A stretch of 32,000 bases of DNA from Byssovorax sp. (GTDB lineage Bacteria; Myxococcota_A; Polyangia; Polyangiales; Polyangiaceae), in the NCBI GenBank assembly GCA_040006075.1, contig JBDTXR010000004.1, positions 21,457 to 53,456 of the forward strand. Reading direction: 5' to 3'. Position 1 is the stretch's first letter; every line of letters starts with the position of its first letter. A program made the translations under genes and the position numbers. Below, piece by piece: positions 9,076 through 10,581 of this stretch. The notes under the pieces were generated by a model that had not been told where the DNA came from, did no database searches, and worked only from the letters and a program-made list of their open reading frames with translations.

Positions 9076-9104
9076 TTGCCCGCTCCGTCGAAGACCCGTA
9101 TTAA
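9076..9104 (+). promoter_or_regulatory. sigma70-like promoter P1 (TTGCCC - 17 nt - TATTAA)
   Basis: The -35 is TTGCCC at 9076-9081, the spacer is 17 nt, and the -10 is TATTAA at 9099-9104. An A/T-rich tract (about 9038-9070) lies upstream. The same layout is conserved in the second copy at 10245-10273. Confidence 0.5.
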
Positions 9105-9124
9105 TCAGCCACTAGGAATTCGCC

Positions 9125-9313
9125 ATGACACCCCGCCTGACCAACGACCAACCTCTGAACAAGAAGCCCACCATGTGGGATAGTCTTGCCCAGGGGGCGT
9201 CCTTGGCCGGGCGCGTCGAAAGCGGATATCACTTCACGTTTGCCCATGCCTTCGGTTGTCAGGTCGCGTCGCGAATTGCGCGCAGGCTCGGTACCCCGGA
9301 GGATGGCTCCTAG
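9125..9313 (+). CDS. small conserved ORF, 62 aa, copy 1 (unknown function)
   Basis: AGGAA lies 6 nt upstream of the ATG. A paralogue at 10294-10482 has the same length and an aligned stop. The two 6-nt indels between the copies keep the frame. Five of 7 substitutions across the ...FGCQVASRIA... segment are synonymous. Confidence 0.5.
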   Translation: MTPRLTNDQPLNKKPTMWDSLAQGASLAGRVESGYHFTFAHAFGCQVASRIARRLGTPEDGS

Positions 9314-9348
9314 AGCGGCACCAACACCCGTCATTCCGTGACGATTGT

Positions 9349-9380
9349 GAAGGCCGCCCAGGGAAACCCAGGCGGCCTTC
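9349..9380 (+). terminator. conserved GC hairpin, copy 1 (terminator/attenuator or processing hairpin after small ORF 1)
   Basis: A 10-bp stem GAAGGCCGCC/GGCGGCCTTC encloses a loop that can pair further (GGG-AAA-CCC). It is followed by GGCGTTTCC, which is only a weak U-tract. Homologous hairpins lie at 9784-9816 and 10518-10550. Confidence 0.4.
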
Positions 9381-9783
9381 GGCGTTTCCGGGGTCCGGTT
9401 CTCGAACCGGATCTCGGCGCGGCGAGCCGCTCGGTCTCCGGAGTCATCAACAGCGTGGGCCGGTCGACCAGACCAGCGATTTATTTGTGCGCCCGGGGTG
9501 CGAACCAGGGGTGTGCAACAGGGGAGTAGTGCGTCCAGCGGGGGTGAGATGGGGAGTCTCATCTGGTCTGCTGGGCTTCGGGACAACCATTATGAAGCGG
9601 TGGACTACCATTAACGTCGCATTGAGCGCGAGCGATCTCCATCGCCCGCAGCATTGCGAATTCAATGGTTTGGCGTCATCGCGACCAATCGCCTCCAGCG
9701 GAGCGCAAGCGCGCTCGTTCGGCCTCGCCGGGCAGCTCGGGGATCGCTCCTAGGGCACCATTCGCCGTCGATTTCGACGCGCG

Positions 9784-9816
9784 GAGGGCCGCCCCGGGAC
9801 ACCGAGGCGGCCTTCG
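9784..9816 (+). terminator. conserved GC hairpin, copy 3 (orphan 3' fragment of the small-ORF module)
   Basis: The stem is GAGGGCCGCC/GGCGGCCTTC. An A-U pair in copy 1 is replaced here by G.U. The flanks GCTCCTAG...CACC upstream and TTCGCCGTTTCAGGGTC downstream align with the ends of copies 1 and 2 (region 9745-9829). Confidence 0.35.
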
Positions 9817-9889
9817 CCGTTTCAGGGTCAGGGGTAGTGACAGACACGTCGTGTGCGCGGCGTGGTCGGGGAACGTGCGCCATTTCTAT

Positions 9890-9970
9890 GTGGGAGCTGG
9901 GCATCGGTGCGCCCAGGCGTCTGTAAAACGTCCGCCCTCGGGCCTGGAGGTTCAACTCCTCCCTTCCACA
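9890..9970 (+). tRNA. tRNA-Tyr (GTA)
   Basis: Acceptor GTGGGAG/CTTCCAC (1 G.U). D-arm GGGC-ATCGGTGC-GCCC. Anticodon arm GGCGT-CTGTAAA-ACGTC. 13-nt variable arm (class II). T-arm GGAGG-TTCAACT-CCTCC. A73; no CCA encoded. Confidence 0.75.
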
Positions 9971-9975
9971 CCGCA

Positions 9976-10055
9976 GCGCGGGATCTCCGCGCCCTGGTCT
10001 CTGACATCCGAACGTTCGATAGCATGGAAGAGGACGCCAGCGTGCGTCCTCTCGT
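9976..10055 (+). repeat. 80-nt inter-tRNA spacer, copy 1 (paralogue at 10841-10920)
   Basis: It aligns along its whole length with 10841-10920. Conserved hairpins are GCGCGG-loop-CCGCGC and GAGGACGC-loop-GCGTCCTC, and the central block is CTCTGACATCCGAACGT. Confidence 0.7.
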
Positions 10056-10128
10056 TCCGGGGTAGCCAGATGGCAAAGCGCTCGCTTGTTGAGCGAGTCG
10101 TGTGGGAGCTCGATGCTCCCCCCCGGAG
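10056..10128 (+). tRNA. tRNA-Asn (GTT), copy 1, with degenerate T-loop (possible pseudogene)
   Basis: Acceptor TCCGGGG/CCCCGGA. Anticodon arm CTCGC-TTGTTGA-GCGAG. The T-arm GGGAG-CTCGATG-CTCCC departs from the TTCGAnT consensus. G73 and CCA are encoded. Confidence 0.5.
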
Positions 10129-10244
10129 CCATTGTTTCATGGAGACATGAATCCATCCAAAGGCTTCAATTTGCCTGAAATTCGTGGACATAAAGAGTCT
10201 TCGAGCAGGCCAGAAAGAAAATCAAAAAACGAGAAACTTTATCC

Positions 10245-10273
10245 TTGCATGGTTCGTCGAAGCAGCGTAGTAA
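10245..10273 (+). promoter_or_regulatory. sigma70-like promoter P2 (TTGCAT - 17 nt - TAGTAA)
   Basis: The -35 is TTGCAT at 10245-10250, the spacer is 17 nt, and the -10 is TAGTAA at 10268-10273. An A-rich tract (AGAAAGAAAATCAAAAAACGAGAAAC) lies upstream. It is positionally homologous to P1. Confidence 0.5.
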
Positions 10274-10293
10274 CCACCCCACAGGAACTCGCC

Positions 10294-10482
10294 ATGACAC
10301 TCCGCCCGACCAACGACCAACCCCTGAGCAAGAAGCCCACCACGTGGGACGGTCTTGCTCTGGTCCAGGTAGCGCCTTTGGCCGGGCGCGTCGAGAGCGA
10401 ACATCCCTTTGCCCATGGCTTCGGCTGCCAGGTCGCCTCGCGCATCGCGAGCGGGCTCGGTACCCTGAAGAATGGCCCCTGA
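10294..10482 (+). CDS. small conserved ORF, 62 aa, copy 2 (unknown function)
   Basis: Paralogue of 9125-9313 (MTLRPTNDQPLSKKPTTWDG...FGCQVASRIASGLGTLKNGP). AGGAA lies 6 nt upstream of the ATG. The listed ORF starting at 10102 is an upstream extension across the promoter and is not credible. Confidence 0.5.
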   Translation: MTLRPTNDQPLSKKPTTWDGLALVQVAPLAGRVESEHPFAHGFGCQVASRIASGLGTLKNGP

Positions 10483-10517
10483 AGCGGCACCAGCGCCCGT
10501 CATTTCGTGACGATCGT

Positions 10518-10550
10518 GAAGGCCGCCCGGGGAAACCTGGAGCGGCCTTC
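10518..10550 (+). terminator. conserved GC hairpin, copy 2
   Basis: 9-bp stem GAAGGCCGC/GCGGCCTTC with a variable loop, followed by GTCGTCTCC, which has no real U-tract. tRNA-Lys starts 32 nt downstream, so read-through into the tRNA cluster is plausible. Confidence 0.4.
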
Positions 10551-10581
10551 GTCGTCTCCGGGGTCAGCGCACGCCCGACCT

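Follow-up and report, generated by a model that had tools for sequence, protein, structure and literature searches.

A conserved leader cassette with a short open reading frame and a GC-rich hairpin upstream of tRNA genes in the Ro60-linked arrays of Polyangiaceae

In bacteria, the promoter is regarded as the main point of control for tRNA genes, via growth rate and the stringent response, and the purpose of the large accessory tRNA arrays is still debated. Translated leaders are known from other kinds of operon: leader-peptide attenuators govern the amino-acid operons trp, his, leu and pheA as well as pheST, with its leader pheM, and the pyrBI leader and TnaC of the tna operon exert termination control coupled to translation or to ribosome arrest. 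Coding sequences and tRNA genes also occur together in mixed mRNA-tRNA operons, such as tyrT-tpr and thrU-tyrU-glyT-thrT-tufB of E. coli. In our literature searches we found no description of a leader open reading frame (ORF) placed before a tRNA array, nor of a Ro60 gene embedded in one. Here we describe a cassette combining a promoter-like block, a short ORF and a GC-rich hairpin, which lies upstream of tRNA genes in a 32,000-nucleotide (nt) stretch of the genome of Byssovorax sp. (contig JBDTXR010000004.1, positions 21,457 to 53,456; hereafter "the window"). Our preferred reading of the sequence, held tentatively and given somewhat less than an even chance, is that the cassette acts in cis as a promoter and leader, starting transcription of the tRNA sub-operons of a Ro60-linked array and subjecting it to an attenuation mechanism that senses the ribosome.

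Three paralogous cassettes and their distribution

Cassette A spans positions 9064-9394 and is paired with copy B at 10233-10563 (coordinates are those of the window, and all cassette and array features located in it are on the plus strand). The two copies share 88% column identity in a MAFFT alignment and about 80% identity by blastn (E = 1e-84). The original prediction, of a duplicated module of some 320 nt in which an A/T-rich tract, a promoter, a ribosome-binding sequence, a 62-codon ORF and a GC hairpin follow one another, held for the presence of all of these elements. It fell short in counting two copies, as a third, diverged cassette (C, 9592-9824) lies between A and B and makes three paralogous units. 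As we read it, each unit would consist of an A-rich tract with a -35/-10-like block, a short 5′ untranslated region carrying a Shine-Dalgarno (SD) sequence, an ORF of 55-74 codons, a small hairpin and a GC hairpin of very high stability, after which comes a short U run.

In cassette A the promoter-like block (9044-9104) comprises an A tract (9044-9053), the sequence GAAAC (9064-9068) and two hexamers, TTGCCC (9076-9081) and TATTAA (9099-9104), set 17 nt apart. The corresponding block of cassette B (10213-10273) contains an A-rich tract, GAAAC (10233-10237), TTGCAT (10245-10250) and TAGTAA (10268-10273), again with a 17-nt spacer. Such blocks are conserved in 18 of 18 aligned copies and are recognisable in lineage L020, in Sorangium and in Chondromyces. 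Their conservation and their position suggest that they function as promoters. A reading akin to promoters of extracytoplasmic function (ECF) sigma factors, GAAAC-N16/17-CGTC, fits 16 of the 18 copies by alignment count; in So ce26 CGTC is replaced by TCTC.

Cassette C includes a small ORF (sORF-C; 53 codons, 9592-9753), a diverged paralogue ending at the homologous TAG, and a 3′ element (9766-9824; family D13) in which a small hairpin (9766-9779) precedes a big hairpin (9784-9815) and then GCCGTTTCA. sORF-C is kept in eight of nine lineages, with in-frame indels of 21 and 6 nt, the exception being L012, in which ATG and TAG have both been lost. L020 (a reading by eye; the gene call there is 44 amino acids) and So ce1128 likewise have C-type ORFs. 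The 3′ element of cassette B (10483-10559) carries AGCGGC (10483-10488), a small hairpin (10498-10512) and a big hairpin (10518-10550), followed by GTCGTCTCC. A gap of 31 nt separates this last hairpin from tRNA-Lys (start at 10582) and leaves no room for another promoter. From the shortness of this gap, and because no conserved promoter-like block lies between the hairpins and the tRNA genes, we infer that the latter are co-transcribed with the cassette. Cassette B probably drives also rsr, the Ro60 gene situated further downstream in the array. The proposal that tRNA genes come next after the hairpin is thus correct for copy B but not for copy A, which is followed first by a structured RNA (9486-9588) and by cassette C, tRNA-Tyr starting only at 9890.

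The cassette occupies the same chromosomal site in 12 related lineages represented by metagenomes or metagenome-assembled genomes. Fifteen relatives of the encoded peptide, 47-63 amino acids long, were found in metagenomes; their contigs, together with four contigs identified by a hairpin-derived DNA pattern, provided 11 A-type and 7 B-type copies. Following the Ro60 orthologues led to the cassette in L020, a more distant lineage, and to diverged forms in three Sorangium strains and in Chondromyces crocatus, where the cassette is found three times, each time upstream of tRNA genes. Orthologues of rsr are present in more than 40 Sorangium genomes. In every lineage examined the cassette precedes tRNA genes and lies within an array that contains Ro60 (Rsr). 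This occurrence is far beyond chance: no related locus examined lacks the cassette at the syntenic site. Duplications of the whole cassette (cassette B in the window, cassettes 2 and 3 in Chondromyces) again precede tRNA genes. No B cassette was detected in the outgroups L016, L017 and L020, and for this reason we regard cassette B as a later duplication; the notion of a module heading each upstream tRNA cluster is accordingly valid for the window clade and for Chondromyces but not for these outgroups. A blastn search for a phage origin of the cassette gave no match in 50,697 phage records. In the tree of the copies, the A copy of the window falls among the B paralogues, and its 18-residue N-terminus is identical to that of the B copy of L012. 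This likeness indicates either retention of ancestral sequence or gene conversion between cassettes.

Probable translation of the leader ORF and constraint on its peptide

The ORF was analysed in the 18 aligned copies (11 A-type and 7 B-type), or in 19 A/B-type copies when L020 is counted. sORF-A (9125-9313, stop TAG, GC content at third codon positions (GC3) of 0.73) and sORF-B (10294-10482, stop TGA at the aligned position) both have 62 codons, and AGGAA lies 6 nt before each ATG, all of this in agreement with the original prediction. The frame is open in 19 of 19 copies, covering the window clade and L020, with lengths of 57-63 codons; it is also open in the three Sorangium strains and in the three Chondromyces cassettes. 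Frame-breaking indels or internal stops, which had been named as the observation that would speak against coding, occur in none of the 19 copies. All 18 copies and L020 have their stop codon, be it TAG, TAA or TGA, at one homologous site. Random placement of the 303 substitutions obtained by parsimony reconstruction gave an expectation of 7.1 nonsense events, against none seen, and zero was never reached in 1000 placements (P < 0.001). Similarly, only 0.3% of column shuffles left all 18 copies free of stops. The four contigs retrieved through the hairpin-derived pattern were found in a manner blind to ORF integrity.

Indels tell the same story. Those inside the ORF measure 3, 6, 6, 6 and 9 nt, as against 1 or 11 nt in the flanking sequence. 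Between the A and B copies of the window, the two indels that fall in the ORF are both of 6 nt, as first noted, and a third, of 1 nt, falls in the hairpin outside it. The SD sequence AGGA (9114-9117 in cassette A, 7 nt before the ATG; 10283-10286 in cassette B) is invariant in 18 of 18 copies despite its variable flanks, and so is the ATG. In L011 an 11-nt duplication preserves the spacing of the proximal SD sequence. Codon-position periodicity (GC1 > GC2 < GC3) fits the frame of the ORF; the minus-strand and shifted frames were rejected as coding, as all five contain stops in many copies. In So ce26 the cassette ORF is already annotated, as a hypothetical protein. We conclude from this sequence evidence that the ORF is probably translated, in line with the coding role favoured at the outset.

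The peptide itself shows little sign of constraint. The ratio of nonsynonymous to synonymous divergence (pN/pS) is 0.71 for the A copies and 0.64 for the B copies, versus 0.8-1.3 in shifted frames; the comparison with more copies, which the original prediction had called for, thus gives values below one that do not differ significantly from the shuffled value (shuffle test, p = 0.076). Substitutions at codon positions 1, 2 and 3 number 85, 111 and 107. For the neighbouring dehydrogenase pS is about 0.2 and pN about 0.035, whereas for the small ORF a pS of about 0.2 goes with a pN of about 0.13. Codon choice is atypical as well: the GC3 of the ORF is 0.72 against 0.90-0.95, and over every cassette ORF it ranges from 0.70 to 0.85 versus 0.87-0.95 in neighbouring genes. 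The counts initially reported for the two window copies were confirmed: five of seven substitutions are synonymous in the block beginning with FGCQ, and five of eight are non-synonymous in the first 22 codons. In Sorangium, where all three ORFs have 58 codons, the cassette ORF is 71-81% identical versus 85% at third positions of rsr. The N-terminal two thirds of the peptide are unrecognisable between genera, and cassettes 2 and 3 of Chondromyces encode unrelated peptides.

The peptide belongs to no recognised family: no match was obtained in Pfam, NCBIfam, PADLOC or PDB (best PDB E-value 1.6), and AlphaFold predicts no fold (predicted local distance difference test (pLDDT) score of 55, a value too low to permit a fold search). 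A profile search of 1.84 billion representative proteins returned four small-ORF relatives and two further matches, which are unrelated tandem-repeat proteins. The conclusion that we draw is that selection appears to act on the translation of the frame and not on most of the peptide sequence. Should the attenuator model prove wrong, the cassette would still offer a clear example of an ORF kept open by selection while its sequence drifts at near the neutral rate.

Hairpins, alternative pairing and competing explanations

The best-conserved parts of the cassette are the region of the stop codon and the hairpins downstream from it. Among A orthologues, divergence is about 0.3 in the middle of the ORF, 0.027 at 9311-9329, 0.10 at 9330-9349, 0.00 at 9350-9369 and 0.03 at 9370-9388. 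The terminator-like hairpin thus diverges by 0-3% in 11 orthologues, versus about 20% at neutral sites. In cassette A this element covers 9349-9389 (hairpin proper 9349-9380; GAAGGCCGCC..GGCGGCCTTC, then GGCGTTTCC). It has a GC-rich lower stem of 10 base-pairs (bp) and 4-5 apical pairs, the sequence that follows being GGCGTTTCC in A and GTCGTCTCC in B. In L020, in the three Sorangium strains and in Chondromyces cassette 1 the lower stem shows at most one changed position; variant stems are found in Chondromyces cassettes 2 and 3, where one A-T pair is lost from both arms, and in the C-type copy of So ce1128. The small hairpin (9329-9343 in cassette A, CGTCAT-TCC-GTGACG) displays compensatory changes in the C copies, in Sorangium and in Chondromyces cassettes 2 and 3 (CGTCA/TGACG, CGTCG/CGACG, GACATCC/GGATGT). 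The small hairpin, the big GC hairpin and the sequence CGTTTC are common to the three paralogues of the window. The pattern GGCCGCC..GGCGGCC occurs only at cassette positions in the window and in the fetched loci, and a metagenome scan detected syntenic copies only; the possibility of a genome-wide repeat, akin to repetitive extragenic palindromic (REP) elements, was discarded on these grounds.

Two further hairpins lie inside the ORF and could serve as pause sites. One corresponds to codons 13-21 of sORF-A (9160-9188; CAAGA..CCCAC-CAT-GTGGG..TCTTG). In the alifold consensus, its pair 67/93 is A-U in eight sequences and G-C in eight, a change that, read from the codon table, arose in the A and B lineages alike. 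The second (9197-9214; GCGTCC-TTGGCC-GGGCGC) forms a conserved island with a divergence of 0.12, appears as alifold helix 110-114/121-125 and resembles the 3′ arm of the terminator-like hairpin.

The stop codon and the AGCGGC that follows it (9311-9319) constitute a candidate antiterminator strand. The 5′ arm of the terminator-like hairpin carries the complement of this segment, UAG-AG(G)CGGC in its general form, and the two are predicted to pair in pre-terminator folds. When the 3′ arm was omitted, the 5′ arm paired with the stop-proximal segment in 13 of 13 folded modules, the small hairpin being nested inside. In six of 16 modules no other upstream window pairs as well with the 5′ arm; in all but one of the remaining modules the segment scores -14 to -23 kcal/mol versus a median of -8 to -13. 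The antiterminator helix is pairable in 90% of alignment cells, and both helices, terminator and antiterminator, are at least 90% pairable and essentially invariant. Several single-sequence folds contained another long-range helix, joining the Pro-Glu codons (ACCCCGGA) to the post-terminator sequence UCCGGGGU; its register shifts between copies and it was not used.

These features suggest how the putative switch might work. The ORF would be translated, its product being of little importance. A ribosome reaching the stop codon close behind RNA polymerase would cover the UAG-AG(G)CGGC segment; the terminator hairpin would then form and few transcripts would extend into the tRNA genes. Were ribosomes to fall behind or halt within the codon-poor leader ORF, as they might during a shortage of charged or intact tRNAs, the stop-proximal segment would pair first with the 5′ arm, pre-empting the terminator and permitting read-through into the tRNA genes. 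What the attenuator would sense is a more doubtful matter. It is conceivable, if rather unlikely, that it responds to the overall speed of translation or sufficiency of tRNAs and not to one amino acid, so that a lag caused by scarce, damaged or cleaved tRNAs would turn on the accessory 34-gene array along with the RNA-quality-control protein Ro60, providing Polyangiaceae with a self-regulating back-up supply of tRNA.

A number of observations weigh against the attenuator model. A scan for sigma-70 promoters (at least nine of 12 matches to TTGACA-N16-18-TATAAT, with A at position 2 and T at position 6 of the -10 sequence) calls zero sites on the promoter-like blocks, because both -10 hexamers lack the final T; the promoters first predicted are right in hexamers and spacing, not in a strict sigma-70 match. 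A terminator scan (stem of at least five pairs followed by at least five T within 8 nt) calls nothing at 9349-9389, 9784-9824 or 10518-10559, because the T run is too short. The U run has only 2-3 U, and the big hairpin, aptly described at the outset as a GC hairpin without a real U tract, may not terminate at all. Directly after the rsr stop codon (13320-13322), and 8 nt before tRNA-Arg (13362), lies another U-less GC hairpin, of 11 bp (13327-13354). This ORF-hairpin-tRNA order repeats the layout of the cassettes and points to a role of such hairpins in stabilizing or processing mRNA 3′ ends. In So ce281 the antiterminator is weak, at -12.6 kcal/mol, and 51 other windows score better; in Chondromyces cassette 2 it is weak too, its -14.4 kcal/mol barely beating the median window of that module. 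In two Sorangium strains it carries a G to A change without compensation. Covariation is silent on both helices because neither varies. Finally, the ORF has no conserved codon run or cluster of regulatory codons. Orthologues differ at its Lys, Asn, Gln and Thr positions, and on this ground we rejected an attenuator specific to the codons of the Lys, Gln, Asn and Thr tRNAs that follow. A leader peptide or attenuator is still the best fit of the three ideas raised in the original prediction, considering the nearly unconstrained peptide, the conserved stop region and hairpins and the possible pairing, but it has against it the missing covariation, the missing cognate codons and the weak U tract.

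A further point against the model is that ten residues are invariant in the window clade, six of them with synonymous codon variation (Gly31 is encoded by GGG, GGA and GGC), and that a sparse motif, W(D/E)xL..AH..R(R/K)LGxPE(D/N), is common to the window clade and Sorangium and thus survives across genera. Both findings indicate some selection on the peptide itself, and both favour a genuine small-protein gene, co-transcribed at the head of the tRNA operon, whose product of about 60 amino acids would act in trans, for instance with Ro60, in tRNA processing, or with the HNH or Thg1-like enzymes. The GC hairpin would in this case be a leaky terminator, or a protector of the 3′ end left by RNase P or RNase E cleavage before the first tRNA. 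The evidence from the integrity of the ORF, its SD sequence, start and stop applies equally here, as does the periodicity in the right frame; the synonymous fraction of substitutions (0.319 versus a null of 0.271, P = 0.03) and the analogous U-less hairpin between the rsr stop and tRNA-Arg add to it. Such a gene is harder to reconcile with a pN/pS around 0.7, with a second codon position as variable as the third, with the loss of recognisable N-terminal sequence across genera and the unrelated peptides of Chondromyces cassettes 2 and 3, and with the lack of a predicted fold or family match. Moreover, conservation is far higher in the untranslated 3′ region than in the coding part, which is unusual for a protein gene. 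We regard the small protein as a serious contender, if on balance an unlikely one. We consider it distinctly less probable that the leader is a non-coding structured RNA, whose hairpins would serve the processing, stability or protein binding of the tRNA precursor, possibly as a target of Ro60/Rsr or of an RNase, the ORF being untranslated or its translation irrelevant. That conservation peaks in RNA hairpins whose stem sequence is kept across genera, that structure with one covarying pair exists inside the ORF, that substitutions are spread near-evenly over codon positions and GC3 is near the non-coding level, and that the locus encodes Ro60, a binder of structured RNAs, would all agree with it. 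Without translation, however, it is difficult to account for the stop-free copies (P < 0.001) and for the differing phase of indels inside and outside the ORF, and the stops in the other five frames of many copies, the SD spacing that survives the 11-nt duplication, the three different stop codons at one site and the absence of any Rfam or YrlA match on the cassette all count against it.

An improbable variant of the leader would be a nascent-peptide arrest sequence of the TnaC or SecM type, in which sparse residues, responding to a signal, halt the ribosome on or close to the stop codon and thereby control Rho- or hairpin-dependent termination before the tRNA genes. It would account for the sparse conservation, most of which falls in the final 13 or so codons and on a Trp about 44 residues from the C-terminus, for the Pro-stop ending of all B copies and of the A copies of L015, L016 and L017, and for the strong nucleotide conservation around the stop codon. 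Against it speak the variable last residue (S, P, L or A) and the absence of the motif from Chondromyces cassettes 2 and 3; moreover, no ligand or signal can be proposed. As to a type I toxin, or the precursor of a ribosomally made natural product (RiPP), it would have in its favour just the small size and the lineage restriction of the ORF. The sequence reveals no hydrophobic or membrane segment and no conserved antisense RNA feature, PADLOC gives no match to a defence or toxin family, and no modifying enzymes are encoded nearby, the neighbours being acyl-CoA dehydrogenase, YkuD, tRNA genes, Ro60 and the HNH protein. The toxin-like peptide suggested originally can hardly be upheld, and this whole class of explanation seems to us very remote.

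The Ro60-linked array and comparison with described systems

The array consists of 34 densely spaced tRNA genes, all on the plus strand, between 9890 and 16973; syntenic arrays of relatives have 33-35. Coverage of amino acids is nearly complete, with anticodons biased toward those starting with G or C. Many of the genes score low, and only 23 of the 34 reach the Rfam gathering threshold. In the window, the acyl-CoA dehydrogenase gene is followed by cassette A, the structured RNA (9486-9588), cassette C, tRNA-Tyr and tRNA-Asn, cassette B, nine tRNA genes, rsr, 23 tRNA genes and the HNH gene. All related contigs show synteny of the flanking genes, among them those for the dehydrogenase and YkuD on one side and for the HNH protein at the other end of the array. 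rsr (about 11640-13322), inside the array, encodes a protein with TROVE and vWA_Ro60 domains that is 48-49% identical to Ro-like proteins of mycobacteriophages and Gordonia phages. The HNH protein (167 amino acids, 16115-16618) marks the end of the array in all genera, and its HNH domain resembles those of IscB and Cas9d. Next to it, some relatives carry a gene for a Thg1-like 3′-5′ polymerase (18641-19411 in L006), which the window lacks.

Some tRNA genes of the array have an odd geometry, such as an anticodon at position 30-31, and tRNA-like matches without an ARAGORN call occur at 14272-14344 and 16787-16870. Two tRNA genes are duplicated along with their leaders: tRNA-Asn with 80 nt of upstream sequence (9976-10130 versus 10841-10995, 84% identity) and tRNA-His (11243-11341 versus 11423-11521, 88% identity). 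The structured RNA between cassette A and sORF-C, whose start codon it abuts, is made of two hairpins with 36 pairs, eight of them showing compensatory changes in RNAalifold, and has two invariant GGGGAGU motifs; no Rfam match was found for it. A second conserved RNA, tRNA-like in structure, begins about 120 nt past the rsr stop (13445-13585). Its acceptor stem, of 7 bp, shows compensatory changes (GCAGATG, GCAGCTG or GCAGTTG, each with a matching 3′ strand). A D arm and a T arm are present, CCA is encoded in the window and in L006, and a hairpin insert of some 55 nt takes the place of the anticodon arm; the RNA receives no ARAGORN call. Between this RNA and tRNA-Trp lies a purine-rich tract of about 60 nt (AAGATCAAGAACAAGAGAGGAGAAGAAAAGAGCAGAGAATGAATGAGAAGAG, 13585-13650), unusual in a genome of 70% GC.

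The presence of rsr invites comparison with the Y RNAs (YrlA/YrlB) of bacterial Ro60 loci, which normally lie no more than 4 kilobases (kb) from rsr and on the same strand (Chen et al. 2014, PMC4201824). The cassettes likewise are on the rsr strand, 1.1-2.5 kb upstream. They lack, unlike a Y RNA, the terminal Ro-binding stem and the tRNA-like domain or arms; their consensus fold contains only a weak, non-covarying pairing between the start of the ORF and the sequence after the hairpin (six pairs, no double changes). No match to Rfam YrlA or Y_RNA was obtained on 9040-9400 or 10209-10565, even at E <= 10. Sub-threshold YrlA matches (Rfam, gathering threshold and E <= 10) fell only on tandem tRNA genes, a class of false positives in YrlA searches of which PMC4201824 had warned. 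Two further candidates were dismissed: a by-eye match to the Ro-binding motif of Y RNAs, GGUCCG with GACCAG near 9390-9480, is not conserved in the outgroups, which have an unrelated hairpin there, and a match to the YrlA motif GNCGAA(N)G in the promoter spacer of cassette A (CGTCGAAG) lies upstream of any plausible transcription start and is altered in L017, L020 and Sorangium. The cassette is not a Y RNA. The tRNA-like RNA at 13445-13585 may be the YrlA-like partner of the window Ro60 and is a better candidate than the cassette. Through the protein identity given above, the window Ro60 gene also recalls the Ro-like genes of actinophages, found in tRNA-rich genomes.

As in the mixed mRNA-tRNA operons, a coding sequence and tRNA genes would share one transcript, to be split by RNase P or RNase E, and the hairpin would protect the 3′ end of the mRNA. 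There the ORF follows the tRNA genes and specifies a conserved or abundant protein, whereas here a fast-evolving ORF comes first and the cassette is duplicated as a unit. If the attenuator model is true, a translated leader with a switchable hairpin before tRNA genes would let translation feed back on tRNA supply, and it would give a first handle on the regulation of the large accessory tRNA arrays and on the reason for a Ro60 gene within one. The model is testable, as the cassette occurs in the cultured Sorangium cellulosum and Chondromyces crocatus.

With leader-peptide attenuators the cassette shares a short ORF with its own SD sequence, placed between a promoter-like block and the genes and followed by a GC-rich hairpin. 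It shares too a segment at the end of the ORF that can pair with the 5′ arm of the hairpin, so that ribosome position could choose the fold, and a peptide that would be largely dispensable. It differs in preceding tRNA genes, and probably rsr, in place of biosynthetic genes, in the length of its ORF (55-74 codons versus 14-30), in a U tract of only 2-3 U, in the absence of a cognate-codon run and in an alternative helix without support from covariation. Leader attenuators are marked by a cluster of cognate codons and a canonical U tract, and the cassette has neither. The pyrBI leader and TnaC offer other parallels. The TnaC peptide is sparsely conserved (Trp, Asp, Pro-stop), in a way that resembles W..AH..RxLGxPE of the cassette; TnaC acts via Rho and free tryptophan, whereas for the cassette neither Rho sites nor a ligand can be inferred. 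The pyrBI leader ORF runs through the terminator, whereas the stop codon of the cassette lies 35 nt upstream of the hairpin; that ORF is also long, at 44 codons. As with pyrBI and TnaC, control in the cassette would depend on how close the ribosome is to the polymerase, or how long it dwells at the stop, and not on a specific hungry codon.

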